In this document: positions 6,999 through 47,147 of the stretch, piece by piece | How positions within the stretch are numbered: position 1 is the first letter of the stretch | Layout: each line of letters begins with the position of its first letter | Origin: Rickettsiales bacterium | GTDB lineage: Bacteria; Pseudomonadota; Alphaproteobacteria; Rickettsiales; UBA6187 | Assembly (NCBI GenBank): GCA_040507985.1 | Contig: JBEVNR010000057.1 | Coordinates: 14,128 to 78,127 of the forward strand | DNA length: 64,000 nt | Reading direction: 5' to 3' | Program-made: the position numbers and the translations under genes | Notes under the pieces: generated by a model | The model's database searches: none | What the model saw: the letters and a program-made list of their open reading frames with translations, nothing else | Told to the model about the DNA's origin: nothing

Positions 6999-7017
6999 GA
7001 CGGCAACCGATTGCGGC

Positions 7018-7194
7018 CTACGCTGTCGGGCTGGGAAGTTTTTTCTCGTTAAACACGACGTGGCGACGCAGTATCGGATCGTATTTACGGAACGACAGTT
7101 TTCTTGTAATTTTTTTTGGGTTTTTATAAATGACTTTATAATACTCCGACTCGCTGCTTTTCAGCATAACTTTTACGACGTTTTTTTTCGCCAT
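7018..7194 (-). CDS. rpmG: 50S ribosomal protein L33
   Basis: Not in the ORF track because it is under 60 aa. My hand translation of the minus strand gives MAKKNVVKVMLKSSESEYYKVIYKNPKKITRKLSFRKYDPILRRHVVFNEKKLPSPTA*. The ..KL.FRKYDP..RRHV.F.E.K core matches L33. Confidence 0.85.
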   Translation of the reverse strand: MAKKNVVKVMLKSSESEYYKVIYKNPKKITRKLSFRKYDPILRRHVVFNEKKLPSPTA

Positions 7195-7423
7195 GACGTA
7201 ATCTCGTGGTGTTGTGTTCGGCCTTTTTCAGCGCGGCCTTTCGCGCAAGAAACCAGCATTACTTATTAAACGACCCGAGGAGTTTGGTCAAGCCAAGTTT
7301 TAGCTTGCTTGCGCACGATCAAAAACTATTTGCCGATACCCGGAACAGTGGCTATAATGACTTTCAACTTCCTTCCTCTATTGATCGCCCGTCGCCGTCA
7401 TCCCACTTAACCACCTTTCTCGC

Positions 7424-8317: not shown

Positions 8318-8491
8318 CTGTGATTGTATGACGCAATACATCGCTAAGGGTGCGCAAGGTAAGTCTTTTTCGATCATCTCCGCTTTTTTCCTTGCTTTGT
8401 CTTCCCTAGGCGCAGGTCGCCGTTTCCTTGATCTCCCGGATTCCGTCCTTACCTCGGCGTTAGGAGTGCTTTTTTAAAAAAATAAAAATAT

Positions 8492-35400: not shown

Positions 35401-38400
35401 CGCCGGAGAGAGCGCCGCCTTGGCAATCGACGTCGCTTGCGTCTAACCACAAGGCCAGCCCGTTTTGCGGCGCGCTCGCGTCGCTGCGGCACGCGCCGTA
35501 AGTCGGCAAGTTCCATTTCGCCGTTTCATAGGCGGTGAGGGCAGCGATCTCCGCGTCGGAAAGCGCGACGTCGTAGGCGATAATTTCCTGCACGTCGCCC
35601 GCGAAATAGCGGCTTGCCGCGCCGCCGGAGGAGGACGGGCCGCCGATGGCCACCGGTCCCGCCGTCGCGCCCGGCGCGGCGGCTTCCGCAATTTCCGCGA
35701 GCGTCAGCTTGGGCAAGGTTATGCCGTCCTGCATCATCTGCGTTCCGCCGACATGGACGGATTGCGTCACGCCGAAATTAATGCGCGCGACGACGAACGC
35801 CCCCTCCCCTTTGCTTGCGGGAAGCGGGAAGTAATCTTCCTTTCCTCCGCTTGCGGTCGGGCTAAGCAGGTAGCCCGAGCCGCCCGAAGCGCCAAGCCCC
35901 CATACTTGCCCCGCGCCTTCGTAGCCGAACGCGAAGGCGAGCCGGTCGTTGCTCGCGCTTTGCCGCGCCGCCGAGGGCGCCAGCGCCACGGCCAGCGTGA
36001 CGCCGCCGCTCGCGCTCGTGAGGTAATTCGCCCCCAGCGTCAACCGGTCGTCCGTTCCGTCAAATTTCACGGAAGGAAGCGCGTTTAGCCCTTTGGGATT
36101 ATAGACGGGCATAGACGCGGTCGCGAGCGCCGAGGCAGTGAATGCGCTCGCCGATTTGTCGCGCCACACATAGCCGGCCATACCGACGGGATGCGATTCG
36201 GTCCAGCCGGCGCCGCTGCATGCGGGGTCTTTCGCGTCGAGCCATAATTTTACCGAGGCGGGTCGTACCGTTAACGAGACGTCGGCCACGCACGCAACGG
36301 GAACGTTCCATTTTTCCCCCGCGCTCGCCCATACCGAGCGCAATTCCGTGGGCGTCAATACGCGGTTATACGCCATAATTTCGCCGACGGCGCCGTTGTA
36401 ATAATTGGCGTTATGTTGTCCCGCGCCGATAAGCGCGTCGTCGGAGGGCGATTGAACGGACGTCTCGCTGCCCGTCACCGTCGCGCCCGCCTTGCCGTTG
36501 ACGTAAAATATCGCTTGCCGCGTCGCTCCGTCAAAGGTCGTCGTCAGGATAGACGGCGTTTGCAACCCGACGTCTTGCGTGTCGCAATGGCGGGTGAAGG
36601 CGGGAGTTCCCGCGCCGTCATTCACCAGCAGCCATTGCCGGTTATTCGTCGCGGAGGCTCCGGCACAGGTGGCGGAGTTCGATTCCGTATGCCATCTAAA
36701 GCCGTTATCCCCCCCTCCGACGATCGAGCCGCTATTGTCGCGGCTAATCACCGCCATGAGGGTAAAGGCGTTCGATATGCCTAGGCCAGAACGTTTTATG
36801 CGCAGATAATTGTTGTTAAATCCTATGGCGGAGCCGTTTCCGAGCGTCGTCGCGGTTTTTTTATAGGTCGGACGCTGCGACGCAACGACTTGATAGGCGA
36901 CGTTGCCCGATCCGGATTTGTCGCGCCACACGCGCAAGCCCGATCCGTCCGTGGGCGCCGTTTTGCCGTCGTCGCAATGTGCGTCTTTCGCGTCGAGCCA
37001 AAGTTTCAGACCGCTCGCGACGCTCGCCGCTTTATTGGTACAGGCGGATTGAAGCGTCGTTTTCCATTTTTTCGCCAGATACGTTTCCATGCTTTTTTTC
37101 GCGCTATCGGCAAGCGCGGTTTCGTAGACGAGAATCTCCGCGACGTCCGAACGTGTCGGAAGCGATCCGTCGTTCGCCGCGCCGATATTGGCTATGCCCG
37201 TTCCCATGGCGCCGGCAGCGGTGAGCGTGGATATGTCGAGCGCGTCTCCCCTAAAAGACGGCAATCCGTCCAGCCCGTCGGTGCGCGGCGTCGTCACCCA
37301 AAACGCGCCGCGATTGTCGGCGTAGACGGCGGCGGTTCCGTCACCTCCCCTTCCCCACAAGGCATTGGCGGCGCCGGCGCGGAAATCGAGTAATACCGAC
37401 GTCGCCCCGGGCGCCGTGTTATGCACGATGAAGGCGGTGCGAACGTTGACGGCGCTCCGTGTGGTCATGCGGTCGTCGACGCCGTCGAATTTCAGCAGCC
37501 CGACGCCGGCGACATAACTAAAGACGGGCGCGGCGGCATCAGTGGCGGAGGCGTGGTTTTTATTGCCCGACTTGTCGCGCCATATGCCGATTTTGTCGTT
37601 GTTCGCTATCGTGATTTTGCCGGTGCAGGACGGATCGGCGGCGTCGAGCCACAAGGCGAGTCCGGCGGAAGGCGCGGCGCTATCGTCGGCGCACCCGACG
37701 AACACGCCCCATTTATCGGCGAGATACGTTTCGACGGCGCGTCGCGCCGCGTCGTCCAGCGCCCGACTATAGACGATCGTTTCGGCCATGTATCCGGCGA
37801 ATCCCTTGGCGAATCCGCCGTTTGACGGGTCGTACCCGATCGCGAGACGTTGCGGTTTGGCGCCGGCGTATTGTTCAGCCGCATTGTCGGAGCGATCCGT
37901 CGCGCCGTCGATATAGATCGCGCGCGCGCTTCCGTTTCTAGTAAATTCCGCGATATGCGCGTCGGGCGTCGCCCTGACTTTGCCGGCGGAGACGAGCGCG
38001 CCGCCGGCCGGCGTCGTTTCGTCGTAAAATAGGGTGAAGTCGGCGTTCATGCCGAATTGGTGGGCGGTTTGTCCGCTATTTTCGGCGTAATGCCCGAATA
38101 ATTGCCCCGTTTGCGCCTTGCTTGCGTCGGGAGCGATCACCGTAAAGATGCTATAGGCCGTCGCGTCGCCGGGAATGACGTTCGACTTGCCGTACAGTCC
38201 GTCCCCTCCGTCGAAATACACCGCCGGCTTGCGGTTGATTTTTGCGGTGACGTATGTCGGGCGGCGGTTGGACGCGCTTTGCGTTAAACGGTTGCGATCG
38301 TCGCTTTTGTCGCGCCATTCGTAGGCTCCGACGCCCGTTTCCGATTGCGAGGGCCAGCGCGTCGCGCCGTCGCAAGCGGGGTCGAGCGCGTCGAGCCACA

Positions 38401-41400
38401 ATTCTAATTTATCGTGGTTTAGCGTTTTGTCGATCGCGCAGGGGCGATTGAGCGCCGCGCCCCATTTATTCGCCAAATCCATTTCGACGTCGCGCCGTTC
38501 GTTCGCGGCGAAAGCGCGTTTATAGAGACGTATTTCCGCAACGTCGCCCTTAAAATATTGTCCGGCGGTCAGCGCGCCGGAGAGCGCGCCCACAGTGAAC
38601 GGACCCGCGCCGGCGGTCGCTCGGGCAGGGGCTTCGCTGATTTTCGCGGCATCAAGCGCGGTCGGCGCGGCTTTGGCCACGATAGGATCGGCGCCGCTCA
38701 CCGACAATTTTTGCGAATCGCCGAACGTCACCGCATACGACAACACGGCGAAGGCGTTTTGCTCCAAGCCAAGCTCGCTTGCGGTCTGGCCGCTTCCGCT
38801 CGCCTCGACCGCATAAAAGCGCAATGAGGACGGCGCGAAGTCCAGTCCCCATCCCCCCGAATATCTGGCGCCGAAATCGAGCGCCGGCTTTTGCGTCGTC
38901 GTCGCGCTTCTGAGGACGACGAACGCCGTCATGCCTCCGTCGCCCGTGTTGATGTACGGGTAATATTTCCCGAGCGTCAAGCAATCGTTGGAACCGTCGA
39001 ACCGCACGACCGCCTTTCCGCCGGCGGCGCCATAGATATAGCTTGGAGGATCGCACGCCGCGTCGGCGTCGGTCGCCATAAACACGTTGGCCGATTTGTC
39101 GCGCCATAGCGTGATCGCTCCGCCGTTCGCCGGCGTCGTCGCGCCGTCGCAATTGGGGTCGGAGGCGTCGAGCCATAGCGCCATGTCGGTCGGCTTGGCG
39201 GCGCCGTCCTCGACGCAGGCGGAGCGCACGACCAGTTTCCATTTCGTGCTTAAATAGCGTTCGACGGCGGCGACGTCCGTCACCGACAAGGCGCGGTCGT
39301 AAAATAATATCTCGCCAATCATGCCTTTGTAGTTTTTCACCGGCACGCCCGACGACGACGAGGCGCCGATCACCATGTAATCGTCGGTTTTCGCCGCCGG
39401 ATGGTAGGTCGCGCTTGCGCCCTCGACGCCGTTCCAGCTTGCCGTCGCCTTGCTGCCGTCCATGACGAGGCGGAACACCCCGTTCTGGTTGGTTTCGGTC
39501 GCCAGGTTTTTCCCCGTCGCGTTCGCGTCGCCCGCCTGCAAGACAAGATCGCCGCTCGGAGAGAACAGGCCGGATACGCCGTCCGTCGCGCTATCGACGG
39601 CGCCGAACAATCCGTAATGGTTGGCGTAGGTCGCCGGCGTCCGCGCCACCACAAAGGCGGTGAAGGGCGAGCCGGGACGATAGTCGGTCATGATATATTC
39701 GTTGCCGCTAAACGACACGGCCGGCAAAGCGTTCAGCGGCGAAGCGAGCGCGTAAGACGGCGCTCCCGCGTCGTAGGAATAGCCGTTATAGACGGTCGCC
39801 GCGCCGCTTTTGTCGCGCCACAGATAGCCGCCCGTACCGACTTTGGCGCCGTCAGGCCACGCCGTGACGCCGTCGCACGCCGGATCGGCGGCGTCAAGCC
39901 ATAGCGCGAGGCCGGTTTTGTCGACGTTGCCGCTCGCGGCGCATCCGTTGTCTAACGCAATTCCCCATTTGCCCGAAAGCTGGCGTTCGAGCGAGGCGAG
40001 CGAGGCGGAGGAAAGCTCGCGATCATATACCAATAATTCCGCAATCGCACCGGAGAGCGAGGCCGTACCCGCCGGGCTGCGCCCGATAAGCAGGTCGGTC
40101 GCCACGCTCGCCGCCGGCAAGGCAGGTTTGGCAATCGGCGCTTTTTTGCCGACATAGCCGCCGTTCACGCGCATCGTCTGGTAGTTCGAAGCAACGCTGC
40201 GCGAAGCGGAATAGACGGCAAAATTGCCGTAAGAGAATCCCCCTACCTGCGATTGCGCGAGGTCGGCGCCCGCCGTTCCGGCGGTCAAGGGGCTGTGGTG
40301 ATGGAATGACGCGCGGCCGGTTTGGGTGTCGAGCAGCATCCCGATTTTCGTCGGCGCGCTCGCGTCGCGCAGCGAAATCAGGCTGTCGGCGGCGTCGGAG
40401 GCGATTTTGGCGGCCATTACCACGCTATATCCGTCTTTTGCGGCTAGCGCGTTAAAGGCGAGTATTTCGAGCGAATCGTTGCCGTCGAAGGTGACGGCGG
40501 GAGAAATTCCCCCCACGGCGTGCGCGTCGTATTTCGGTTGCGCCGACGCGGTCGCCTGTCCGGCATGGCGCCCGTTGCCGCTGCGGTCGCGCCACGGGCT
40601 AGCGGCGGTGACGGAGGCGCCGTCCGCCATGTATCCGGCCTGTCCGTTGCATCCCGGGTCGCTCGCGTCCAGCCATAAGGCAAGGCCGGAGATGGGAACC
40701 GATCCGTCCGACACGCAGGAATCGTTCGAGACGGCGATACCCCATTTCGTCGCAAGATAAGTGTTAATGGCAGCGGTTTGGGCGGCGTCGGGCGCGACGC
40801 TGAAAATCAGCGTTTCGGCAATGTCGCCGCTAAAGAAATTGGATTTTTGCGCGCTTCCCCCAAGGTAAAACTCGCCGATGGCGCCCATGACGGCGGCGCC
40901 GTCGGTCGCGTTGTCGACGCGAACGCCGTTGCGGTAGATTTTATATCCGGCGTCGTATTTGAGCGACAACAACATCGGCTCGACGGCCATTTCCGCCGCC
41001 CGCCCCGTATAGGCGCTGTGATAACCCGCGCCGGCCGCGTCGGAATACGACGCCACCTCGCGTGACATGCCGGACACCGCGTTGCCCAGCGCCAGCCCCG
41101 AGCCGAGCGCGCCATAATTAGGATCAAGTACTTGCGCCGCTGCCGAGAAAGGCGTAACGGTCGCCGCCGGCGTCATCACCACGAACGCCGCCGCCATCGG
41201 CACGCCGCTTAAATTCGCGCCCGCCAGATATTGTCCCTGACCGGAAAACCGCATCGCCGGTTTGGTATTGACGGCGCTCGCGACGTAGGTCGGCGCGGTT
41301 TCGTCCGTTCCTTTTAGCGTCATGGCATAGCGGCCTTTATTTTTCCACCCTAAGTTAGACGCCAGTTTCGCGCCGTCGTTATAGGCGGTTTTGCCGTCGC

Positions 41401-44400
41401 AGGTGGGATCGGTCGCGTCGAGCCACACGGCGAGATTGTCGGTCGGCACGAGGGGAGAGTTGCTTGCGGTGTAACAGGTGTGGCCGCCGCCCGATCCGTC
41501 GCCGTTTAACGCCACGTTCCACTTGCTCGCCAGCTTGTCTTGAATGCCGTTAATGGAGTTAGCGGATAAAAAGGAATTATAGAGAATGATCTCAAAAATG
41601 TTGCCTTCATATTGCTTGGGACCAATCCCGCCGCCTATCCATAGGGGCACGCTTTGGCGGTCCGGCGCGTCGGCGCCCGTGCTGACGGGTGTGCCTCCGT
41701 CTACGGACAAATAGAGTTTTTTCGCGTCGCCCCCGTCGTAATAGAGCGCGGCGACGTGAACCCGATTGTCGGAGACGGCTTTTTTCACGATTTTATCCGA
41801 TCCGCTAGATTCCTCCGTAAAGCCGGCGAACACCTCCGGTCCGGTTTTGATGGTGAGTCCGATATTGCCGGCCTGATCGGCGAAAATGGGAGCGTTGCCG
41901 GAGATATAGGCGGCGCCGGCGTTGGCCTGTGCTATTTTAAAGACGCTGAGCGCGGTAAACCCGGCCGAGCCGAACAGGTTTTGCGACGTGGCCCCCGCCA
42001 CCGTGTAATAGTCGTTTCCGCCGAAATCCGCGCCGATATGACCATAATATTTCACCATTTTGGCCGCGTGCGCGCTTGTCGTCGTCGCGCTCCGCCCGTT
42101 TGCGCTGCGATCCTTCCAGCACAATACCTTATCGCCTTCCGTCGCCGCCGTCGCGCAGTCGGCGGACGAGGAAAGCGAACCGGATTGGCTCGCGTCGAGC
42201 CACAATTGCAATCCCGCGCACTCGCCGTTCGGGCACGGCTCTTCGTCGAGCGGCGTCACGTCCCACCGCTCGGCGAAATATTGTTGCAGCGTGGTTTGCT
42301 CGTTGATCGTGAGCACCCGGTCGTAGACGGCGACTTCCGCGATATCGCCCGCCCAATAGGGGCTTGCGGGATTGCCTTCGGTAAAACCGCCGAGCGCGAA
42401 GGGTTTCGAGCTGGCGTACGGCGCGCTATTGTCGTCGCCCTCCCCGACCGGCATGCCGTTTAAATAGGTTTCAAAGTCGCCGCTGACGCTGCCGCCGAAC
42501 GACGCCTCAAACACGTACATTTGCCCTGCCTTGACGGCGCCGAACCCTTGAACGTTCCAGTTTTGCGCTCCCCCGCGCGCATAGGCCGCCCCCGGAGTGA
42601 ACGCGGCGCCGAGCGTCGAGTTCCAGCTTAGCTGGATGTTTGAGCCTTTGGAAAGCGGGCCGGCGCAACATAGCGCCGCGTTGGGCGAAGCCGTTCCCGC
42701 CGCCACCACGTAATAATGCCAGTCGTCTTGGTTGGGAACAGTCGCGTTTTGCAATATGTTCGCCGTGCCGTTAAATCGCACCACGGCATTGTTGCCGGCT
42801 TTCGCAACGGAAGGCGAGGCGGCGGCGGAAGGCGACGACAAATGCCGCGCGTTCACGCTTTTATCTTTCCACAGATCCGCCCCCTGCCCCAGCTTCATGC
42901 CGGCGGCGAGCGCGGTTTTTCCGTCTCCGGTAATGTCTTTGGCGTCGTACCACACCACCAACCCGTCGGAGATGCCGGCCGGTCCTTGGTCTTTTTCCAC
43001 CGCGACGGAAATGCCCCAGCGGTTACCCATGTCGGCTTCAATTTTTAAGCGTTCGTCGTCGCTGACGAAACGGTTATACAGCGCGATCTCCCCGATATGG
43101 CCGTTATAGTAATCGCTTTTGAGCGTCGAATTTCCCCACGTGCCCACGTAAATCGGCACGTCTTCGTTGACCGCCACGAGCGACACATTATTCACCGCCT
43201 GCCGCTTGCCGCTTAAAAACACGTGCGGCGCGGTGCCGTTCCACGAGACGGAATAAATAAGCGGTTTGCCGTTCGTGTCGGGGTGCGCGTAATTATTGAC
43301 GGTCGTCGTAAAGCGCAAGCCCAGCGGAGAAGCGGCGTTGGCCGTCGAATCCATAAATAAGCGGAACGGCGCGGCGGTCGCGGCTGCGGCGCGTCCTTTA
43401 GCCAGCAGTGTGCCGTTGCTTCCGGCCGCCGGCTTAGCCACGACGAACACGCTGTAACGTCCGCCCTTGGTGGCTTTCAGGCTAAGCCCGTCTATCGTCG
43501 TCGCGTCGGCGTTAAAGCGAAAATAATCGTGAACGCCGTCGAAATACACGGCCTCCCTGCCGTTGATCGCGCCCGTATCAGCTTCCGGCGCGCCGAACCC
43601 GTAAAGCGGATTACCCTTGTTACTCGCGTCGCGCCAATAGCCGACATTGTCGCCGTCGCCGGCTTCGGTGGTGATATTTTCGTCGGTGAATAACGGTTTA
43701 TATTGCGTGTCCACCGCGTTCGACCAGTTGACGATGCCGTCGGTGACGTCGCCGGGGCCGCGCAATCCCGCGCCTTTGCAAAGCGACGCCAGATCCGTCG
43801 CCGCTTCGCTGTCGGCCTTCGTCCAATTGCCGTCGTCGCAACGCAAATGGATTTTACTTTGCGGGTCGCTGCCCGCATATTGGTAGCCGGTTTTGCATTC
43901 GGCCTTCACCTCATAGGCCACGCCGTCGCCGGCCTCGAACGGGCCGCCATAGATAGTCATGTTCCACGGTTTGTTTTCCAATTCGGCGCGGGAGCAGGTT
44001 TTGCGGACGCACGATCCGTTTTCCGGCCACACCCATTCGCCGTCTTTGCCGCATACCGCCGTGGGCGTCGATCCGGCCGGGGTGAAATGTTTCTCGCAGC
44101 CCGACGCTTCGTGAGACGATCCGTCCGCCTCCGCGTTCGGCCATATGATATGGTTGAGCGTGACGGTTTTGCAGATAGATTTCGAACAGTTTTTCTCGCT
44201 TACCTTCCATACGGGTTTGTCTACGTCGTCGAGCGCGCACACTTCATACATGACGCCGTCTTTCGCGCCCGGGCAATTTTCGGTCACGATGGCGCGCATT
44301 TCGCCTAGCGCGTACTCACCGCACGACACGGGCTTGCAGGTGTCGCGCTTCACCGTCCAATAGGGAGAGACGTTTCCGTTATCGACGCAAAGCAGCGTCG

Positions 44401-45814
44401 CCTGCCCCTCTTCGCCGGGAGGACAATCGCGCGTGACGGTTTGGCCGCCGGTGCAAGACGCGCCGCCGTAATCCAACCGGCAACTATTCGCCACCGGCAC
44501 CACCACGTCGTCGCCGCCGCCGGTGCACATATAGGTGACGCGTCCGCTATAGCCGCTCGGGCAATTATTCCTCTCGGTCGTCTCCCATATTTTTAACCCG
44601 CCGTTGCAGGTAACGGGAGAACATTTATTAACGCTCGCGCCCACCCAATACCATTGCGAGGCGGAGACATCCGTGCAGGTTTGCGAGACGTATCCCTCTT
44701 CGCCCCAGCGGCACGCGCGGTAGCGTAGTTTCGGATCGCCCGCCGGATCGGGCACGCAGCGATACACGGCGCCGGCGGCGGAACCGTCGACGATTTTGCA
44801 ATCGGTGTCGAAATCGTCCAATCCGTCCGGATCGGGCTTGTTCGCCCACACGCCGTAGTCGGAACAATATTGCGCGTTATAGGCGCCGACGAAATCGTTT
44901 ATGCATTCTAAACTGCGTTCGTCGCCCGGCGCCTTGCCGCCGTAGCACGTGGCTTGCTCGCAGGCTTTGTGGGTTTCTTGCCACATCAATTCGCCGTTAT
45001 CGTCTTGCTTGCAGGTTTCGTACACGGCGCCGCGATAGCCGGCGGGGCACCCTTTGGTTTCGTCCGACACCTCGCGCACCGCTCCCAGCTCGGAGCAGCG
45101 GCCGGAATATTCCGATCCCTCGCCGCCCATGGCCGACGCGCCTTCCGCGGACAAGAATGCCAGCACGCAATTCGGCTTGTCGTCGGACGCGTTATACGCA
45201 TTGCCCGACGCCAGGCATTTCCCCCCGCCCGACCCGTCGAAGGCCCGCACGCGCCCGGTCTTGGGCAAACCGTCGTCCATGCGTTCGTCCATGAGCTTGG
45301 CGTCTTCCGGGGAAATTATCCCGACGCCGTCGTCATTTGAGGTAAACCCCGCGAAGGCGAAGCCGAACGCCTCCTTCGGCGCGTTCGCTATATTATAAAG
45401 TACGCGGAACCCGCTGCCTGCGATGCTGCCGGCCGGCACGCCCTTGCCGGGAACGTAACGGCTCGTGCCGTCCGCGTCTTCTTCGATGAGTCCGGCGGCG
45501 CGCAAATGCAACCAGAATTGCAGCGCCTCGCCTTCGGTATCGATGGCGCCGTTGCCGTTGCCCGGCGTAAGCGTGGCGCCTTTGGGCGCGGAAAAAGGCG
45601 GAGAGGAGGCGTTGAACGCCATGTCGCCGGGAAGCGCGTTGTAAATGCTGCGGAAATCCTGCGCGGCCTTGGTGTATTTCGCCGCTTGCTTCACGATCGA
45701 GCCGCGGCGCGACTTATCGACGAGCGACATGCCGCCGGCGACCATGACGCTCAGCGCCGCCACCGCCCCCAGCACGGCCGCCATCTCGATTAAGCTAAAG
45801 CCCGTCCGCCGCAT
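8492..45814 (-). CDS. Giant modular pilin-like protein (12,440 aa): prepilin-type signal and pilin domain, 8 four-Cys CCP/Sushi-like modules, about 47 tandem LamG/ConA-like modules
   Basis: A single open frame of 12,440 codons runs from ATG 45814 to TAA 8492-8494. All other frames across the span are fragmented. N-terminus MRRTGFSLIEMAAVLGAVAALSVMVAGG. Periodic conserved motifs recur throughout (see the sub-features). Confidence 0.9.
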   Translation of the reverse strand: MRRTGFSLIEMAAVLGAVAALSVMVAGGMSLVDKSRRGSIVKQAAKYTKAAQDFRSIYNALPGDMAFNASSPPFSAPKGATLTPGNGNGAIDTEGEALQFWLHLRAAGLIEEDADGTSRYVPGKGVPAGSIAGSGFRVLYNIANAPKEAFGFAFAGFTSNDDGVGIISPEDAKLMDERMDDGLPKTGRVRAFDGSGGGKCLASGNAYNASDDKPNCVLAFLSAEGASAMGGEGSEYSGRCSELGAVREVSDETKGCPAGYRGAVYETCKQDDNGELMWQETHKACEQATCYGGKAPGDERSLECINDFVGAYNAQYCSDYGVWANKPDPDGLDDFDTDCKIVDGSAAGAVYRCVPDPAGDPKLRYRACRWGEEGYVSQTCTDVSASQWYWVGASVNKCSPVTCNGGLKIWETTERNNCPSGYSGRVTYMCTGGGDDVVVPVANSCRLDYGGASCTGGQTVTRDCPPGEEGQATLLCVDNGNVSPYWTVKRDTCKPVSCGEYALGEMRAIVTENCPGAKDGVMYEVCALDDVDKPVWKVSEKNCSKSICKTVTLNHIIWPNAEADGSSHEASGCEKHFTPAGSTPTAVCGKDGEWVWPENGSCVRKTCSRAELENKPWNMTIYGGPFEAGDGVAYEVKAECKTGYQYAGSDPQSKIHLRCDDGNWTKADSEAATDLASLCKGAGLRGPGDVTDGIVNWSNAVDTQYKPLFTDENITTEAGDGDNVGYWRDASNKGNPLYGFGAPEADTGAINGREAVYFDGVHDYFRFNADATTIDGLSLKATKGGRYSVFVVAKPAAGSNGTLLAKGRAAAATAAPFRLFMDSTANAASPLGLRFTTTVNNYAHPDTNGKPLIYSVSWNGTAPHVFLSGKRQAVNNVSLVAVNEDVPIYVGTWGNSTLKSDYYNGHIGEIALYNRFVSDDERLKIEADMGNRWGISVAVEKDQGPAGISDGLVVWYDAKDITGDGKTALAAGMKLGQGADLWKDKSVNARHLSSPSAAASPSVAKAGNNAVVRFNGTANILQNATVPNQDDWHYYVVAAGTASPNAALCCAGPLSKGSNIQLSWNSTLGAAFTPGAAYARGGAQNWNVQGFGAVKAGQMYVFEASFGGSVSGDFETYLNGMPVGEGDDNSAPYASSKPFALGGFTEGNPASPYWAGDIAEVAVYDRVLTINEQTTLQQYFAERWDVTPLDEEPCPNGECAGLQLWLDASQSGSLSSSADCATAATEGDKVLCWKDRSANGRSATTTSAHAAKMVKYYGHIGADFGGNDYYTVAGATSQNLFGSAGFTALSVFKIAQANAGAAYISGNAPIFADQAGNIGLTIKTGPEVFAGFTEESSGSDKIVKKAVSDNRVHVAALYYDGGDAKKLYLSVDGGTPVSTGADAPDRQSVPLWIGGGIGPKQYEGNIFEIILYNSFLSANSINGIQDKLASKWNVALNGDGSGGGHTCYTASNSPLVPTDNLAVWLDATDPTCDGKTAYNDGAKLASNLGWKNKGRYAMTLKGTDETAPTYVASAVNTKPAMRFSGQGQYLAGANLSGVPMAAAFVVMTPAATVTPFSAAAQVLDPNYGALGSGLALGNAVSGMSREVASYSDAAGAGYHSAYTGRAAEMAVEPMLLSLKYDAGYKIYRNGVRVDNATDGAAVMGAIGEFYLGGSAQKSNFFSGDIAETLIFSVAPDAAQTAAINTYLATKWGIAVSNDSCVSDGSVPISGLALWLDASDPGCNGQAGYMADGASVTAASPWRDRSGNGRHAGQATASAQPKYDAHAVGGISPAVTFDGNDSLEILAFNALAAKDGYSVVMAAKIASDAADSLISLRDASAPTKIGMLLDTQTGRASFHHHSPLTAGTAGADLAQSQVGGFSYGNFAVYSASRSVASNYQTMRVNGGYVGKKAPIAKPALPAASVATDLLIGRSPAGTASLSGAIAELLVYDRELSSASLASLERQLSGKWGIALDNGCAASGNVDKTGLALWLDAADPACDGVTAWPDGAKVGTGGYLWRDKSGAATVYNGYSYDAGAPSYALASPLNALPAVSFSGNEYIMTDYRPGSPFTAFVVARTPATYANHYGLFGAVDSATDGVSGLFSPSGDLVLQAGDANATGKNLATETNQNGVFRLVMDGSKATASWNGVEGASATYHPAAKTDDYMVIGASSSSGVPVKNYKGMIGEILFYDRALSVTDVAAVERYLSTKWKLVVRSACVEDGAAKPTDMALWLDASDPNCDGATTPANGGAITLWRDKSANVFMATDADAACDPPSYIYGAAGGKAVVRFDGSNDCLTLGKYYPYINTGDGGMTAFVVLRSATTTQKPALDFGARYSGGWGLDFAPSSLRFYAVEASGSGQTASELGLEQNAFAVLSYAVTFGDSQKLSVSGADPIVAKAAPTALDAAKISEAPARATAGAGPFTVGALSGALTAGQYFKGDVAEIRLYKRAFAANERRDVEMDLANKWGAALNRPCAIDKTLNHDKLELWLDALDPACDGATRWPSQSETGVGAYEWRDKSDDRNRLTQSASNRRPTYVTAKINRKPAVYFDGGDGLYGKSNVIPGDATAYSIFTVIAPDASKAQTGQLFGHYAENSGQTAHQFGMNADFTLFYDETTPAGGALVSAGKVRATPDAHIAEFTRNGSARAIYIDGATDRSDNAAEQYAGAKPQRLAIGYDPSNGGFAKGFAGYMAETIVYSRALDDAARRAVETYLADKWGVFVGCADDSAAPSAGLALWLDAADPSCTGKITIANNDKIGIWRDKSGNKNHASATDAAAPVFSYVAGVGLLKFDGVDDRMTTRSAVNVRTAFIVHNTAPGATSVLLDFRAGAANALWGRGGDGTAAVYADNRGAFWVTTPRTDGLDGLPSFRGDALDISTLTAAGAMGTGIANIGAANDGSLPTRSDVAEILVYETALADSAKKSMETYLAKKWKTTLQSACTNKAASVASGLKLWLDAKDAHCDDGKTAPTDGSGLRVWRDKSGSGNVAYQVVASQRPTYKKTATTLGNGSAIGFNNNYLRIKRSGLGISNAFTLMAVISRDNSGSIVGGGDNGFRWHTESNSATCAGASATNNRQWLLVNDGAGTPAFTRHCDTQDVGLQTPSILTTTFDGATRQAIFYVNGKAGATVTGSETSVQSPSDDALIGAGQHNANYYNGAVGEIMAYNRVLTPTELRSVWASAGEKWNVPVACVADVSLTVRPASVKLWLDAKDPACSGAGWTESHPVGMAGYVWRDKSASAFTASALATASMPVYNPKGLNALPSVKFDGTDDRLTLGANYLTSASGGVTLAVALAPSAARQSASNDRLAFAFGYEGAGQVWGLGASGGSGYLLSPTASGGKEDYFPLPASKGEGAFVVARINFGVTQSVHVGGTQMMQDGITLPKLTLAEIAEAAAPGATAGPVAIGGPSSSGGAASRYFAGDVQEIIAYDVALSDAEIAALTAYETAKWNLPTYGACRSDASAPQNGLALWLDASDVDCQGGALSGGANIGSAKNMWRDKSGHTPGAVNGDGARPTLSSTVTQNNKKLVTLDGTDDFLEFTDLYDLTDKTLLMAAKFTVGGNKQGLFARRSSASSGNETILLPGAPASLFLFTAAGGSDTTLDIAAPAADMGFFGVYAVTVTADRAVSVYRNGGAHASGALAGPLRVERFGIGYDPGPYYLNAALGEMLIYDHALDSTERGAAETYLSLKWKVALSCVSDQTLTYKNGISLWLDAADPLCDGATRYKNGDVVPAWMDKSGNNRHAYAVTAPKYATGVANNMPAVTFSSASLQSLEIATAFAPRDIFLVGSQNARDSAGAFMGGRTDANFRLWERTKTERLQLLATASVAAPADGMHIYRVSQAAGGALSAYADGESFGVQTPSQALLNDSFYIGQRKGAGADAYLDGYIAEIIAYAAPAVDADAANVGAYLSKKWGASYQPAPTCKPDAALAYQTGLNLWLDGADPDCDGTAGLSSASSVKSWIWRDKSAAKSFAVQYRRPAYKADARNGKGAFVFSASGSHFAAPSLPVTGGDMFVVASFANSGESGTLLSTGDEYFFYKQSDARLYGKANGSTAYVAPPSDVDYHVYRLKTGTPSKIFVDGAQQAQTGAGFNAQSGNLWRIGAQKDAYYADAAIAEILSYGAPLADVDAATVQTYLSGKWFTGGACASDSSLAPAGLVLWLDANDPLCSGNAKAYPNNASVPLWKDKSGQAHDAAPQFGKGKPTLAWNAGYNGRSMMYFDAANNSALQTANILRNDFTAFIAFKPLAASASGVYPNQNGGLLSADAASGLRFNVSYGGQKLYFGVNDVFISSVFGVETTRMATLRRQGAILQLFAEGLQKQWVGNAASGALNAADGMSIGSVRTANASYQGHIGEIVAYDSALANDKRNAVESYLAKKWNVDAPDFGACTSDSNPGGITGMSGLQLWLDAADPQCKGATKKYADNEKTWFWYDKSGAARHMGAVAENTRPVYKKSGINGREAFYFDHSHMTAPKGLDADFTLFAIIYPDAGSASGGPASTDNGGLISMDIASGRDFTFAFGGGALRFGIYNAPAAVELSAATPAGAPYLVAAKRSGATVSLYNSGNLTATNAAAPTGWMESNQFSVGAVPTNGNAYKGYIGEILAYNVPLSDTDRGRIESYLGKKWGISGFCADNVGIPSAKMELWLDATDPTSACAESSSPTAPLAQWNDKSGKGRAATAPLPANAPTRTLNTLNGKAALVFDGVDDYLSGTYNVTLTGGKATIFVVADLLDLTKDGAGVFILTKAAPATGLWGGYAETTGINVAIDPAANKNFSFLAKNRVNSLDAPDRVAAYALRLKATEAELFVDGTKKLGDVGYVGATVTPGAYFLGRYDNAYNTIQLGEAILYSDALSDTDLTTVSTYLANKWHIKKTATTCAGNIPFPYPAGLKLWLDAKDPYCTGEAAVNGASVSVWNDKSGSGASLPVRGGAKMATSGALGAISFDGVDDVAGHRAGAVGSVDLKVADSSLLTLFVTAKTAEETATPGTMLRLYGQGAQAPNPLPVQSLEFGVATSHLLRYDVSGSARTLGAYTTDAMRIYNLTAKNSEIKLYVDGNQRVYGDQSPANIASVRRIMIGASPDSANGLSNERYFKGNIGDVIVYSAVIAENERQFVEDYLATKWGIPIDRTCSYNDMSLPTVNRILWLDAADADCKGTLTTASSVGTWKDKTTNMIHAGANNAIRWQSKAQNGLPMAELQAGDFFDVGADKFLNVSNLTGFIVAAPSVGESAQTMLSASFAEGEGALGLSLFKQNVAFGVTTGAASKEDTAGKTALYSFVWNNTADTLQLGINASGDMATTPYNLSAVTLNKGLRIGAKSDGSAPFSGRIGEIVLYGRTMSADERRGAERALSAKWGLAAAVCVSEDDALPYKAGLQLWLDAGDPMCGDASAYANGESATLWLDKSGYDRYASSPLTATAPLFTANAQNALPVMRFDGNKRMQGKGAFGFASRDMTLMVATAVVDRAKDNAYVFSLDKQGGASVSSEPNFLGLGNAVADNTLRLHGAGYGLDATAATPTDFTIWTARLASNMATLYKNGAQITQDAYAGTAFAPDTYSIAAARDNDWGRVDVGEIVLFDHAVTATERAVNEAYLGHKWGVGVACGPITQPLPYQTGNILWLDAEDPLCIGKENQYGGDTTVAIWRDKSGKGNDAAISASGYRPIYRLNRQNEKPAVDFDGTDDRLRMPDMPELLGNANYYIFAVANADTIRSQSLLNLTSTTNLYGSNVHFMSSATNWRHNWYGNDQNTPVVFTAGETFLYAATWNGTTRTTRFNGVATGSGTPSVAHNGLQNGLNAIGETFSGSGYWDGAVEEVSVYAGTTLTAANVKSVESYLATKWGIAKALRVFNACASSFSSGPGGVSGGLALWLDAADPFCQGTGAQYASGEAVRLWRDKSSKGYDATQPLNGSWPVYAPTPGIHALPVLDFDGTNGYLSLPDMPELLGNNSYAIFAVAQPDALRRQALLSIGTPSINNVFIENTLNDAAGAWRHGWGGTGAYIDVATQENTIATTAPFLYGAVWNNASGKLSVRFEGKKITEIAPSPHNGQQSGINSVGRALHTTGERWDGKIGEIVVYGNTNLSDVNIATVENYLAVKWGISAQSVCTSSADPGNTGKTAGLRLWLDANDPYCLGEATRYADGGAVSLWRDKSRSSHHAYQSTALLMPVYRQSGMNALPAVEFDGADDYVNLPVISALNGNNAYNIFLVVKTDVVATKNFIALGEPSNRSYLSLEFSNANLRQAWWGADLDVSAAAAGVSAGVPFLATLTWDGAIRTTRINGAVKAQDAPGARNMSNTNVDAIGRMLHTSGYTFDGMMAEMLVYADTSMDAATVPAIEAYLAQKWGIATAAACVPSSGSGVTGGLQLWLDATDPTCYGGKLSDGVELASWKDKSGNNNHAGQTVAAAKPVYKTTSGFGASLPSVVFAGGDYMAAADSVGLSLSQDMTGFIVLSVSNLDRPAYLLSKGADNAYNWRINSLLGTGATGGSGVQRLFFKDAGAASYSYVSPKPNVDKPVMLSVALDMGNAGTGNTASFYENGKLTKTHNFVSTAIKDTNDALWVGAGNPAAGDPNYLKAEVGEILLYNTALTGTQIATVHDYLSKKWKISSDATSACASSSDPGATGVTDGLQLWLDAEDPYCQGKAAQYANGAAVYLWRDRSGKGNNAGQSTAALQPTYATNWRFGKPAMNFDGTDDNLALPDIAALAGNAKYYVFGIGYARAPAAKNGFAMLGASGQANKGNGHWYNGTNQLWNHDWQGTALSPNAASYMGVGAFMFAGAWDGAARTVRMNGRQVASDAPPAHNTLQNGNNRIGVYNDGANRYWNGMIAEVLVYAGSTLTAKNVSAIESYLAGKWDLGGYLCPEIPTNYAPSNDLALWLDAGDMDANCKTDAALYAETDVSAWKDKSGSGYNAVADGTVWAINASAPTPGAKSPPSVGRKVIAGKNVVTFDRANNENLSLLNPVAPANHPLMPNGNNSYTMLAVMQTERYAEQYLLASSEYGVAGATAPNVFSLYRSLTGAVENLWETSVDGAINAYPLMKPYKVARSIPYALSFRYDKNADGRMVRVNGEEIGSAFDTTSRNGNASQYIWIGAGVHRNENGDLLETFNFDGHIAEMLYYRSALSTVDLKEVENYLISKWALLSSCDASTNPPVKIAGANLKMWLDADDVNGDCTPDGNIPNQDVVVWVDKSGKGNHASWGVAPSIDGVKVNNRNAVTFNAASGEYFRMQDKTIPLGNDPYTVAAILTYKALPGTGDRFLMSGGTGGGRFGVGLGDDFTAKIGVGATFTSTDWGSVMPDMAQMLVARYDSGARTIRINRKQEIGASTSTSATGGNNQIGRDGAAASAYFNGSIAEMLVYNAALSSAQYGQIYDLEEYLNKKWNIVSVCSEKSLANVSGLTLWLDADDIDADCVPDDATPAGAADAWQDKSGNNADAWGAAKPNVVKNTVQGNDGSMRNIVSFDGINDYLGIRKSVFPKYNDNYTLFAAFSTNLQDGATQQFIYGQEKGGLNTHGYLLSGVDASLMRHYNTNGTEQRLKTGANLFPQTMRVLTVRGSAATTNMYVDGEERTLVSSSAARAQDAASRMDSIGAARLVSTATACSGECYKGDVAEIILFNRRLGAGVGSDTASIQRYLQEKWGIYRDCALNSIPATKGTGLALWLDGDDLDGDCKSDSVAANGQKLSVWRDKSGHYRHAYHLTDARRPYVEATDVGRETRNGHNAVKFVASEQNWLHIPDETVPVGNSPFTIFAVFREATNTSAQTLVSGGNAASLGSYTALELAHAGVRGDLTLYGFSGGPISMGTDSVSPFMLYAASVVYDPALGRAILFNADAAMLAPDGVKNHAATGIDNRIGAKGGNSSWMDGEAGEVIIYGSPLSQGDVIVVQRYLLEKWGIDQKQNDASPKEGDATGDSDGNDCLADDSIPQTHLTFRISANDLACQGVRHPLADGAAVALWKDRSGWARDVYASDSSRRPTFKRNILNGRPIVRFNGTSNKLGVNVEGRKIFGANGDMTFFALANYASPAHEGKIFTWGDEEGEPAYMGITALSGGGSLFFDVGNATSGNGRLAFVPAGGFADNWHFYTAQRDGANMRLRIDGADVASGGATSVPSFNYYERDLAIGSDGPHYYKGDVAEIILYDAALSDEGIQAVEGQISGNWGVGMSCAHDAALDGLTTPPDMWMDADDPFCAGRTSQYTQGQTAQYWYDKSSARRKLTASGAPAYDKRDHGVRSVIKMAANDFYDGPTLVSDLGGTDSGAAFVVFRKPDATARYISGALNGNGSFYMLGAANGATDMGALNVAAGALPLSVSVAKTTAGTNAGYHIATAFLHAPNNRAGLRVDGVTERLGAANFSSYDFANAAFRIGGASGATNGAGSVLYVGEAILTAKPVSADDIETVESYLATKWGIARPQDVACSPGAGPAASVTGANAPALWLDANDVYCNGASSYGDGQRVSLWRDKSGKNYHARQKTDGFAPIYAVSDGFNRRGVVFDGTDDRLSVPAVTELAGNAPYSIFAVARLDDVSAARGMLALPDSSTNNHANAHLFDGATHNWANSWKGNDLLVPQQTFMVHAFPMALQQETFLYEASWDGTTRKIYKNGLWRAADAPAQSRASSASDAFMLGSAGGVYWRGAVHEVIAYNRAYNDADARALNLALAKKWNIVEAIKILADCVPDSIPGMESRAADMALWLDGKDVYCTGDKFALPGGGAGTIINPFLIWRDKSGKGYDVYPQPGSIKNNVFSSNKIPYVSNVEPGATFEQAALWHHGGAFGAGGELSFYMAIAPIAYDGAVAAEKKGFATFLSADNASIFSLTAKTANAGAWTLAHTGDTSLQSSAALETLGALGVYGGYISSSKHEMGFASYQEGAIKAGGDRGGRMKWTGAGAGVSNLSNVMLGYGGGTWNVKEFVAYNAATTAEEEATVVTYLRDKYDIPGPARTCASSSNPMIVGVDATPALWLDAADPLCQNNALYEDGAVPYRWADKSKNNYHADIVYGAPIFKKNIQNALPVMRFDGVDDGLTGYASWRFPDKKMTIVVALAAGDAAGHSDAVFTLDDRASTASPFSDPSLIYFGRGGTSDQNVGLLSNNQDINVSSAADVSFGVWRAEIDGAQAFVAKNGVVTSRDASYLADLISPNAYYVGHVRGGQNFGRADVGEILLYDSALSPTQAWAAEKYLAQKWGVASPINAACSSSTLPGGATLSRAPALWYDAEDPLCQGTGTKYTDGEKIFLWRDKSGHNAALSQTDVAVMPEYRTNYMNALPAIRFTSDAMKRADTFGGGLADMYIFAALRENVAADNKFISFDGAPSAAEAGLYLQAAGSTNPMWKWVTSGAPTLSMPAGTTSVGGISIVRAYYSSSNLKAKIVVNGTKAAETTKTSGNLSTKGGAYVGYGSSDQDIGELIVYDGAITSSDAQTLETYLATKWGTSSSLGACAPYVAPAGVASVPTFWLDASDPLCSGVAAQYSESAAVGLWRDKSGKANDAAQSQASKKPVYAGQGLATGKPAMRFDGTDDYLTLPDMAAFTGNSSYAFFVVAQPEVIAQQTLLGVGKSAVGVNSFTSHEMSPANNAWKYNWGAGGATIDISKFSVSTPFIYAARWDAARTLQTLRLNGATEYEATAPAFAGEQNGGNQIGHFTPSPGSYWNGKIAEIIAYGNATLSDANMTSVENYLAAKWGLGAYGACSGAGNPGGTNVTSGLTFWLDAADPLCTGTGQPYADGAAVALWKDKSGKANNATQTTAAYKPAYRKTAVNSLSAIDFDGTDDVLAMADMSEFSGNNAYALFFVAQPDVLKQQMLFVIGKSGTNDAYEGTAMVDSSGTWIDAWWGSNDRSVTQSVSKIAANAPFIYSAVWNPLTSVRKFRFNGMLAMETNSGTHALQYGEANGFGKVRSNYGGWDGKIAEAIGYGNATLGDADVIKVERYLAAKWGISVPLACTSGSNPGNTGVTAGLALWLDAADSYCMGSGTQYANNASVGLWRDKSGKESNGVQFVDAYKPKYIQTGLNGLPTMDFDGTDDYIGFPNLPELLGNNSYAIFMVAQTDALRRQSIISIGTPNITNAYIENTISSASGDWRNSWWGGDLDVSQADSALAANKAFIYGALWDNVNALRVLRFDGVTRAEASFSAHAGQQSGINSIGRALQTSGEKWDGKISEAIVYGNVVLSDPDVVKIGRYLADKWAISAFPAVCTSSADPKITGATNLLSLWLDASDPLCRGSASQYANGAAISLWRDKSGNGRDARQSTASYKPTNVSGWRNGLSSVYFTTNANRMNVPAVKSLGGNANYYVFALTEVNAIAGYQQKLLDFGKWTNRSSNSHFLNSSNQWAHDWFGTTQNTSTASIAANQPFIYLATWNGTTRDTRFNGVVRNQDTPGARNQYFDGFGYIGQRAGADQSWIGHIGEIMVYGGTTLTEANINAVTAYLANKWGISIDASAYPCTSSPNPGATGVTTGLKLWYDAADVYCQGGYTPYANAGAVNLWRDKSGNASNATQNTAANKPTYDTSDASLPALIKFDGTDDYLSVPSMPSMTGNAPYAAFMVMSASSLGAASGTVVSLSDTTSAQYMSQSLTPINSWNQSWGGGQQLTRVTPSVNQLFLVSSVWNGSELLVKKNGETKKWLSPSAPNFSPGTRNMIGAMPDPGNASAILYPWKGAIAEALAYVGTTQTHAERIALEKYLMNKWKITIPKEGAACASSSDPGGAGATAGLKLWLDAEDPYCQKAASRYASGASVALWRDKSGNGNDAVQDNPAAWPTYDVTNLPGARAGMNFDGSSDDVILRNFSSLVGNAPYAVFGVAATDDVSKASQHLISIMQNNAQLLTSGNIWKQDWSGAPSNQTVAAGVTQGQLFLVSALWDGSARKLKINGALKGQDAPGAPSFTQNGSNRIGGNAAGSNYWDGIEAELLVYGGSVPNDTQITALENYLMTKWGITSGGGAGGGNPGNLGVTSGLQLWLDANDPKAQGAANQYADAERVSVWRDKSGYVRDAVTTYDAPVYKKNTQNGLPVMYFNGADAGSAMAVQAPISLPQREMTLFFAMAPKDLQSDWRALFTLDNTNSAYSNVYQDPNAFVFGVSDVDGQLFTERDNYDMVGLVAADVNFSVWSMRAQAGALKMFRSGVKVAEDAYVNASAVTSNVVTIGYERDGSMAKADFGEIILYNRALSDGEMRSVEQYLGNKWGTAAYVACASNAGPGGSGVTSGLKLWLDANDPYCQGSSAQYANGSTVNTWRDKSGRGYDAVLDGGTPSYVTNAQNGLPVVRFDGVDDAMSGFGALTFTNREATIFIAADNKDSVTDWDGIFATDRSAPSTATLALQPAGLNFAVYSTDGKAQLLMDQGDINALADIPTGLAVWRLALKSGVASLYRNGALAGQDNFANTSTVTPDKYYVSHVRGANFGRNDFAEILLYEGALSAANVNVLESYLQAKWFAKDNRTAACASTADPGATGVVAGLTVWLDANDPYCQGASVQYADGAAVDLWRDKSGNVYNATLKNGSPTYKKNMENGLPVIRFDGVDDAMSGNMAFSLTGREATIFLASRNYDSASDSDAIFAFDKKASSYSYVAQEPAGLSFLVGQTDGTFSVAMDNGDVNMSGALAAGMAVWRLQLAAGKAQVYRNKNLIAQDPFANNSTIAPDVYYISHVRNNYWGQNDVGEVLLYKGALNATQSKSVENYLGQKWGAFVVPPAQGACTSSSNPGGTGVTTGLKLWLDGSDTLCGASPAYADGAAVTIWRDKSGQGNDAAQWDSASPRPLYVASWTNGKGAMNFDGTDDALDLPEMTALEGANVYAVFMAAQADVTRAQGLLAFHHAQQSGKSNVLALASGTSGYEWRNSWWSDGTNAPVSVAPTSPFIISATYDGFNRSVRVNGAKLAEESVGTRNGQAGGRFSVGGVDGYSNWDGKIGEVLAYAGTSLTGTQIASLESYLRTKYAIAAYDMTTAPCMSAASPSVSGVTQTPAVWLDADDPLCLGTLANYSDAEAAGIWRDKSRNGNDAVQSTANYRPLYVKSYLSGKSAMVFDGANDYMGLPNVAAFNGAGRYALFAVATAETARAQGLLNLGRTDVDMAGNFIAMRSATLIENSWKGSYSAGALGFSTSQPFVVSAYYDGNMRRIRTNGITRMADSPPARSGQANGSNAVGAAGALAGYATWSGAVGEILAYGDQNVTLAQMTAMEDYLGVKWGITIVRNPETSECLSSSSPGGISGLPEVKLWLDASDPYCQGSLRYDQSVRPAIWRDKSGKGNDATQADPTLRPAYAGSGIGGLPALRFAYESGKARSLDVPDPFGASASELSVFVVTTENTRAPNNLIAFGDPARNIGLSLPYGGSYWSLYLDEQNYAESYANPSLPGGVGYRYGHASLDITGESAVRMNLSDSVGLPVVTHAYVSASSRFMGMTTLVRRSASSTVNQSVTKGLSSFPPLNTTFGMHIGGNASTASHDVAEAIIFENHVKGQSEAAIMGYLRGKYGL
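8495..43790 (-). repeat. Array of about 47 diverged tandem LamG/ConA-like (Laminin_G_3-type) modules, period 651-858 nt (mean about 750)
   Basis: The Trp codon of the module-initial LW(L/Y/M)DA motif lies, all in frame, at 43724, 42950, 42200, 41423, 40673, 39899, 39173, 38396, 37649, 36998, 36242, 35447, 34724, 34040, 33374, 32633, 31916, 31175, 30419, 29723, 29000, 28253, 27491, 26762, 25970, 25235, 24377, 23663, 22886, 22073 (degenerate, Arg), 21326, 20564, 19796, 18992, 18242, 17519, 16766, 16013, 15257, 14510, 13748, 13022, 12272, 11522, 10766, 10016 and 9263. Each module also has W.DKSG.., ..FDG.. and a terminal ..E..(V/L)Y...L....E.YL..KWG. Confidence 0.85.
43778..45097 (-). repeat. 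Eight tandem four-cysteine modules (CCP/Sushi/SCR-like spacing)
   Basis: Residues 240-679 contain 32 Cys in eight C..C..C..W..C units of about 45-75 aa. Several have GY after Cys2 and Trp before Cys4, e.g. CSRAEL..AECKTGYQYAGS..LRCDDGNWTKA..SLC. Confidence 0.6.
45155..45724 (-). other. Pilin-like globular region ending in a Cys200-X15-Cys216 loop (D-region-like)
   Basis: Residues about 31-220. ..GGGKCLASGNAYNASDDKPNCVLAF.. sits at the C-terminal end of a pilin-sized domain. The Cys200 codon was verified at 45215-45217. Confidence 0.6.
45725..45814 (-). other. Class III (prepilin-type) signal: leader MRRTG, predicted cleavage G|F, Glu+5, hydrophobic alpha1-N helix
   Basis: Residues 1-30 are MRRTG/FSLIEMAAVLGAVAALSVMVAGGMS. 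This matches the G/F(T/S)LIE consensus of type IV pilins and T2SS pseudopilins. Confidence 0.8.
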
Positions 45815-46532: not shown

Positions 46533-47147
46533 ATGTTCTCTCCATACGGATTGTTCACGATGGACAGATTCCTAAATGCGGTTCGCCATATCCCGACAAT
46601 GCTTGCCGCCATAGCGAAGTTTTGTCTTCGGTGGTTAGCTTTCCCGGTTTTCGACCTCAGGCCATCCCGCATTCTTCTTCCCACGCATTCTCGAATAGGA
46701 TATGGGATCGTTGGTATGCTGACATGGATTGTTTATCTTTTGCGAGCAATCGCAAAAACGTTTGTAGATAAATATGTGCTCCTCATATGTATTTTGGTTT
46801 CCTTGGGCGTCGTCTGTGGTTTATTGCTATGGACCGAGATTTACCATCTTAGATGGAAAAGACCGTTCAGAGAAGCGATCAAAGTGCAATATATCTTTCG
46901 TACCGCATGGTTAATCAGTCTGGGCGTCGTATATATATTGTATGCATTAAGCGATCTCCGCAATGCTCCGCCTATCGCCGTTCCGATTGTCACAATCGTC
47001 CTGATAGTCTTATCTTTTGCATGTTACGTCGTTATAGCGCGGTCTTTATTGCCAAAATATTTCTGGAACAAACAAGAAAGAATTCGAGCTTATGCAATAC
47101 AGAATCAATCGGAAGCAGAACGTCAATGGCCTACAAATCGCAATTGA
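46533..47147 (+). CDS. Hypothetical multi-pass membrane protein (AT-rich ORFan)
   Basis: 204-aa ORF with about 4 hydrophobic helices. No family recognised. Confidence 0.45.
   Translation: MFSPYGLFTMDRFLNAVRHIPTMLAAIAKFCLRWLAFPVFDLRPSRILLPTHSRIGYGIVGMLTWIVYLLRAIAKTFVDKYVLLICILVSLGVVCGLLLWTEIYHLRWKRPFREAIKVQYIFRTAWLISLGVVYILYALSDLRNAPPIAVPIVTIVLIVLSFACYVVIARSLLPKYFWNKQERIRAYAIQNQSEAERQWPTNRN

Follow-up and report, generated by a model that had tools for sequence, protein, structure and literature searches.

The window, a stretch of 64,000 nucleotides from a Rickettsiales bacterium (assembly GCA_040507985.1, contig JBEVNR010000057.1, positions 14,128 to 78,127), carries a giant open reading frame (ORF) of 12,440 amino acids (aa), in which a type IV pilin-like module is followed by eight cysteine modules and a long array of laminin G (LamG)-like repeats. 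Residues 240–679 of this protein probably constitute a disulfide-stapled array of the complement control protein (CCP)/Sushi superfold, which would be the stalk in a modular type IV pilin of giant size. We take modules 7 and 8, which have the normal size, to be CCP modules proper and modules 1–6 to be a shortened offshoot of this superfold, in which the segment between the first two of the four cysteines (C1 to C4) has about half its usual length; HormR is their nearest solved look-alike. The modules, their conservation, their CCP-type similarity in sequence and fold, and the gene context are shown by the analysis. The features of the giant gene are as follows.

8492..45814, minus strand: giant ORF of 12,440 aa (ORF list), with pilin module, eight cysteine modules and LamG repeat array
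45110..45814, minus strand: type IV pilin-like module, residues 1–235, with class III signal peptide MRRTG/FSLIEM (slash, cleavage site) and hydrophobic alpha1-N helix
45167..45217, minus strand: cysteine pair of the pilin module; neither cysteine varies in alignment A5 of the N-terminus, and nearly all homologs have the pair at about 200/216
43778..45097, minus strand: eight-module cysteine region, residues 240–679 (exact residue-to-window mapping)
44960..45097, minus strand: module 1, C240/256/268/285, short form; cysteines invariant
44798..44947, minus strand: module 2, C290/304/317/339, short form; the linker behind it has 13 residues and contains part of an insertion specific to the window protein
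44621..44758, minus strand: module 3, C353/368/380/398, short form; four cysteines invariant in alignment A3
44480..44608, minus strand: module 4, C403/418/430/445, short form; alone among the window modules, it lacks a Trp between C3 and C4
44336..44455, minus strand: module 5, C454/464/476/493, the shortest (40 aa); C2–C4 part in register with CR1 CCP modules
44186..44323, minus strand: module 6, C498/514/526/543, short form by its cysteine spacing
44009..44173, minus strand: module 7, C548/573/588/602, canonical CCP length; best CCP alignments of the region
43778..43996, minus strand: module 8, C607/640/659/679, canonical CCP type but longer than usual; aligns to CCPs of C2, beta2-glycoprotein I and CR1
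8495..43717, minus strand: LamG/concanavalin A-like array, about 47 repeats of about 250 aa, residues ~700–12440 (Pfam and repeat starts)

The original prediction had described 32 cysteines in eight four-cysteine units between a pilin module and a lectin array. All 32 lie at the positions claimed, and both flanks were borne out by pilin profile matches, by Laminin_G_3 and by the repeat starts. Cysteine accounts for 7.3% of residues 240–679; the remaining 12,000 residues contain 100 cysteines (0.8%). In modules 1–6 of the window protein 9–15 residues separate C1 and C2, 11–12 separate C2 and C3, and 14–21 separate C3 and C4; the corresponding values are 24/14/13 for module 7 and 32/18/19 for module 8. 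In the family the medians are 10–15/11–12/12–16 for modules 1–6, and for modules 7 and 8 they are 25/14/12 and 27/13/12, respectively. Measured against the usual CCP length (approximately 55–65 aa), modules 7 and 8 comprise 55 and 73 aa and modules 1–6 40–50 aa. The predicted unit length of about 60 aa did not hold: six of the eight units cover only 40–50 aa, counted from C1 to C4. Successive modules are connected by linkers of 4, 13, 4, 8, 4, 4 and 4 residues (between C4 and the following C1), i.e. five of seven are exactly four residues long. The linker between modules 2 and 3 has 13 residues in the window protein versus a family median of 7; an insertion specific to the window protein (residues ~322–352; 44759–44797 plus flanks) lengthens both the end of module 2 and this linker.

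A Trp between C3 and C4, originally noted in most units, is present in seven of the eight window modules and, depending on the module, in 57–100% of homologs. Gly-Tyr after C2, originally noted in several, was found in four (modules 1, 3, 4 and 8); the aromatic-Gly motif at this place, likewise present in four of the eight, varies across the family. The CCP-typical Pro next to C1 occurs in module 8 of 56% of homologs and is mostly absent from the other modules. The short modules have motifs of their own: the C1–C2 segment contains Gxx[RK], and C2 itself is part of C-P-x-G. In profile–profile comparisons (hhalign), modules 1–6 matched one another at 91–99% and module 7 matched module 8 at 97.7%, and the short modules matched module 7 with 88–94% probability over the C2..C4 part only. 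Judged by their sequences, the modules therefore fall into two related subtypes, short (1–6) and long (7–8).

Relatives were collected by an exhaustive HMMER search of 1.84 billion cluster representatives (E<=1e-3). This search yielded 66 related protein clusters, 48 of them at E<=1e-10, and no eukaryotic protein among them. Nearly all relatives match from their own residue ~235–260 onwards, and a pilin module of about 200 aa precedes the cysteine modules in nearly all of them. The common layout is a K/R-G-F-S-L-x-E-M prepilin motif, a cysteine pair at about 200/216 and then at least 32 regularly spaced cysteines. Among 20–30 homologs with approximately 30–35% identity, all 28 cysteines of modules 1–7 are invariant, as are several Gly, Trp and Arg residues. 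Invariance at this level of divergence argues that the cysteine pattern is not due to chance. Number and order of the modules are kept across the family, module i aligning with module i, while the region behind them varies from nothing or about 60 residues to thousands, up to more than 11,000. Four members (P0027, P0028, P0029 and P0039) have 48–56 cysteines in the array, corresponding to about 12–14 modules rather than eight, and P0005 has extra long-type modules, which exceed the thresholds of Pfam Sushi and Ephrin_CRD.

A word-indexed homolog search and a scan of genome contigs, both with the cysteine region, found no relative, and a word-indexed search with the family profile returned two proteins only. 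The window itself is assigned to a metagenome-assembled genome of Rickettsiales, since its MiaB is 100% identical to a protein from a genome of that kind at NCBI. Among the members named at their source are proteins of a Rickettsiales endosymbiont that lives in Stachyamoeba lipophora and of a metagenome-assembled Rickettsiaceae genome. Every member whose source name was retrieved is annotated as "hypothetical protein", and none of those with precomputed Pfam data has a Pfam domain over the cysteine stretch.

The relationship to CCP modules emerged when a family profile (alignment A2) was compared with all sequences in the PDB. Almost all of the 48 matches at E<=10 are CCP proteins; the six exceptions all have E>=0.36. 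The top matches were CR1 (9e-39; best single stretch 6e-8), C2b (3e-8) and beta2-glycoprotein I (5e-8), and further matches included MCP, DAF, factor H, Crry, C4BP, C1s and GABA-B R1. The alignments run in register, with C2 on C2, C3 on C3, Trp on Trp and C4 on C4. As a control, every sequence was reversed, which preserves composition and cysteine periodicity. The reversed profile gave two matches in the PDB, neither of them a CCP protein (best E 0.086). Thus the CCP matches go beyond composition, and composition or cysteine periodicity was rejected as their source. A profile of modules 1–3 alone still retrieved almost only CCP proteins from the PDB (CR1 3.6e-11, CR2 3.7e-7); a profile of modules 4–6 was significant against CR1 only.

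Pfam searches with 20 single homologs gave mostly sub-threshold matches to Ephrin_CRD (10 of 20), HRM (9 of 20) and Sushi (6 of 20), located on modules 7 and later. P0005 exceeds the gathering scores of both Sushi (21.9 versus 20.7) and Ephrin_CRD (51.1 versus 27), and the best HRM (PF02793) score, 23.3 bits, lies below its cutoff of 26.2. The EGF-like, GCC2_GCC3 and HYR families were rejected, as none of them matched the window region in Pfam at E<=10. With CCP-like similarity found for the family profile and for the structural model, the predicted CCP/Sushi identity is supported; a CCP-like C1–C2 length is confined to modules 7 and 8, and modules 1–6 represent a shortened form.

AlphaFold2 was run on the 450-residue region with an alignment of 20 sequences. 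The model is almost all beta, with a predicted local distance difference test (pLDDT) score of 82 and a predicted template modelling score of 0.70. When it was compared with the PDB by Foldseek, the top matches were CCP arrays (E 2e-5 to 1e-3, probability 0.89–0.99); they include factor H, beta2-glycoprotein I, Crry, SPICE, the short consensus repeats (SCRs) of E-selectin, PAPP-A and C4BP. Confidence is lowest within the first seven modules around the insertion between modules 2 and 3 (pLDDT 56–71), and ranges from 48 to 80 at module 8. Modules 4–6 modelled alone reached a pLDDT of 91.9.

For the disulfide topology, natural cysteine losses were surveyed in a 68-sequence alignment (the window protein and 67 homologs). 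Apparent single losses proved on inspection to be alignment shifts and were rejected. All genuine losses are double losses: C2 and C4 are lost together in module 1 of P0027/P0028 and in module 7 of P0065, C1 and C3 are lost together in module 4 of P0063, and both C1 and C3 are replaced by Ala in module 6 of P0024/P0036. No contrary pair was found among the 67 homologs. All four independent events fit a 1–3/2–4 topology, for which the chance expectation is approximately (1/3)^4 = 0.012. Cysteines are lost only as C1 plus C3 or as C2 plus C4, and therefore the data fit independent four-cysteine modules with 1–3/2–4 disulfides, the arrangement originally proposed. The C1–C3/C2–C4 topology is in this way indirectly shown, and each module would have both disulfides. 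Neither of the two outcomes named at the outset as refuting the CCP reading, a lack of any CCP-like similarity or a pairing at odds with independent modules, was observed.

The N-terminus reads MRRTG/FSLIEMAAVLGAVAALSVMV, i.e. a class III signal peptide (G/F-x-x-x-E) followed by a hydrophobic helix, and this motif is kept in the homologs. Matches of the pilin module to TIGR02532 (14.8 bits, cutoff 16.3) and PF07963 (11.8 bits) are both below cutoff. A family N-terminal profile compared with the PDB gave type IV pilins as best matches, with Neisseria meningitidis PilE at a modest E-value of 0.0037; the alignment starts at mature residue F1 and covers mostly alpha1. The cysteine pair of the pilin module probably forms a disulfide, by analogy with what is generally known of type IV pilins.

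Genetic linkage to type IV filament assembly genes was seen at the loci of homologs, not in the window. A 760-aa homolog from an amoeba endosymbiont is encoded directly after T2SSE (MshEN) and T2SSF genes and before a DUF5394 gene (L002), and the order T2SSF–pilin–DUF5394 recurs on a second contig (L003, with the tail of T2SSF upstream). Both loci (L002 6943-12919; L003 1-3184), which come from other Rickettsiales, belong to a short subfamily of 744–792 aa, which consists of pilin and cysteine modules with a Cys-rich C-terminal tail (e.g. RCKICYDGICP) and has no LamG repeats. No other ORF with a prepilin motif lies within 10 kb of the short-subfamily genes; the window and L002 contain only one such ORF each. 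Housekeeping genes surround the long forms, i.e. the window protein and P0033.

The region following the cysteine modules matches Laminin_G_3 (5.4e-15 on the first 926 aa) and contains 45 repeat starts of the "LWLDA" type with a period of about 250 aa. Each LamG-like repeat begins with LWLDAxDP..C......W.DKSG and has a conserved cysteine pair 22–28 residues apart.

We infer the stalk or spacer role, its dimensions and the export route as follows. Prepilin peptidase would cut the class III signal peptide after Gly5, and an assembly machine of the T2SSE/T2SSF type would handle the hydrophobic N-terminal helix. The cysteine modules would then fold and become oxidised in the periplasm and, joined by four-residue linkers, could form a protease-resistant, semi-rigid stalk of roughly 25 nm, as estimated from known CCP dimensions. 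Such a stalk would keep the variable distal part, in the window protein about 47 LamG lectin-like repeats, off the filament and the cell surface. Since the family keeps the number and order of the modules but not the distal part, the stalk would be the conserved core and the lectin array the variable binding end.

Several observations weigh against this interpretation. On the window region itself, Pfam Sushi (PF00084) gave no match even at E<=10; the only Pfam matches were Ephrin_CRD (E 0.02; 15.4 bits versus a cutoff of 27) and DUF5977. The best PDB match of the window sequence alone, C4BP, is not significant (E 0.13). For modules 1–6, single-stretch E-values against CCPs are weak and significance arises as a sum over many repeats. 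The model of modules 4–6 has no significant PDB match (best E 0.76), and its only high-probability local matches are HormR domains with E>1. Genes for pilus assembly are absent from the 64-kb window, and a pilin of 12,440 aa would have to cross the outer membrane. Finally, the role proposed for the stalk could equally be a binding role.

The latter is a serious rival, above all for the short forms. The eight modules might themselves be the recognition surface, a eukaryote-like CCP array for a host protein or glycan, maybe acquired from a eukaryotic host by intracellular or epibiotic Rickettsiales. The short subfamily displays the modules only, without a lectin array, each module position has its own non-cysteine residues that are conserved across the family, and the known hosts of members include an amoeba. 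Animal CCP modules are typically protein-binding, as in complement regulators, IL-15R-alpha and the sushi domains of GABA-B. On the other hand, the lack of eukaryotic proteins among the 66 relatives leaves no trace of a recent transfer, conserved module number and order are equally expected of a structural stalk, and no ligand is known. We regard recognition by the modules as rather unlikely on balance. It is unlikely, too, that only modules 7 and 8 are true Sushi domains and that modules 1–6 are an independent small disulfide-rich fold, HormR-like or other, whose cysteines and Trp happen to be spaced as in the C-terminal two-thirds of CCPs. In favour of this reading are the C1–C2 distance of 9–15 residues, compared with approximately 25–30 in CCPs, and the motifs Gxx[RK] and C-P-x-G; the profile of modules 4–6 was significant only against CR1, a protein of 30 modules, and the local matches of their model are HormR domains of BAI2, GPR110 and BAI3 (8oek with a root-mean-square deviation of 1.5 A over 32 columns, followed by 8hc0 and 4dlo). 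However, the profile of modules 1–3 still yields almost only CCPs in the same C2/C3/Trp/C4 register, the short modules align to module 7 over C2..C4 in hhalign, and the 1–3/2–4 rule also holds in the short modules 1, 4 and 6. HormR is regarded as a Sushi-related fold, and this alternative therefore differs more in name than in kind.

An artefact is very improbable. The gene, which belongs to a metagenome-assembled genome, is repetitive and of extraordinary length, and a spurious or mis-assembled giant ORF, or low-complexity repeats, might have produced the cysteine pattern as a by-product. Yet the eight modules are non-identical, with 22–30% pairwise identity, 66 independent clusters, drawn from several sources, preserve them at each position, and the AlphaFold models are confident. 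Moreover, a gene of the same 12,440-aa length was called on a separate assembly (Logan contig SRR28982155_3303).

As a CCP-type array, the region resembles CCP/Sushi/SCR proteins (PF00084; CR1, factor H, C4BP, beta2-glycoprotein I) in the four invariant cysteines, the inferred 1–3/2–4 pairing and the Trp between C3 and C4, as well as in the aromatic-Gly after C2, the four-residue linkers and the head-to-tail arrangement. CCP/Sushi modules are textbook extracellular modules of animals; unlike those proteins, the array described here is bacterial and fused to a type IV pilin, and six of its eight modules lack about half of the C1–C2 segment and carry other motifs. HormR/HRM domains (PF02793), known from adhesion and secretin-family G protein-coupled receptors, are likewise small two-sheet, disulfide-stapled modules with a conserved Trp. 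However, they occur singly beside GAIN domains, whereas the modules of this family stand in tandem; in addition, the HRM matches of the family fall on modules 7 and 8 rather than on the short modules, for which the Foldseek matches have E>1. The cysteine-rich domain of Ephrin receptors (PF25599), which contains a sushi-type subdomain, accounts for more sub-threshold Pfam matches in the family than any other entry, but these concern only the C2–C4 part of modules 7 and 8.

Both the CCP fold class and the idea of modular pilins are already known. Modular type IV pilins carry functional modules grafted onto a pilin module, lectins of PF13385 being common grafts (Raynaud et al., 2021; PMC8179133); examples are PilB (vWA) and PilC (concanavalin A-like lectin) of Streptococcus sanguinis (PMC8179133). 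In the window protein, as in these pilins, the pilin module lies at the N-terminus, has a class III signal peptide and bears grafted modules (PMC8179133). The protein differs from those surveyed in having a conserved eight-module array, the proposed stalk, between pilin and lectin modules, and in its size, since the largest modular pilin of the 2021 survey has 860 residues compared with 12,440 here; the main text of that survey mentions no Sushi-like module (PMC8179133). The searchable literature contained nothing relevant on Sushi-like pilins, bacterial CCP modules or Sushi proteins of Rickettsiales, nor did we find in it the shortened module subtype, this Rickettsiales-restricted family or a pilin of this size.

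Elsewhere in the window, dnaA is located at 49735-51183 (minus strand), 4 kb from the giant gene, and the cumulative GC skew has its minimum at about 50–52 kb. Together these suggest a replication origin here. A 444-aa Sel1-repeat protein (Pfam 1.2e-36) is encoded at 62370-63704 (plus strand); host-associated bacteria often have proteins of this eukaryote-like repeat family. ORFs of 204–398 aa without a Pfam match are situated at 7424-8317 (plus), 46533-47147 (plus), 56338-57534 (plus) and 57712-58785 (minus). The 297-aa ORF beside the 3′ end of the giant gene was compared with the 289-aa neighbour of P0033 and proved to be unrelated.

Rickettsiales include obligate intracellular pathogens and symbionts of protists, and the family points to an unstudied pilus-type adhesion device in this order. 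It extends the concept of modular pilins from a few hundred residues to 12,440, and the family, at present unannotated, could be annotated by curating a model of the short module. A deeply conserved bacterial Sushi-like array with a shortened subtype also bears on the origin of the fold and on the exchange of surface modules between symbionts and hosts. More speculatively, and in our view doubtfully, the pilin with its eight Sushi-like modules might represent an undescribed type IV filament restricted to Rickettsiales, with a disulfide-stapled stalk of envelope length. In this scenario a minimal T2SSE/T2SSF system would have the short form as its only pilin, fibres of as many as about 47 lectin domains would be anchored by the long forms, and the CCP/HormR superfold would have a bacterial branch in the short "mini-Sushi" module. 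If true, either Rickettsiales and their eukaryotic hosts would have exchanged the fold in ancient times, or a fold regarded as eukaryotic would have arisen in bacteria.

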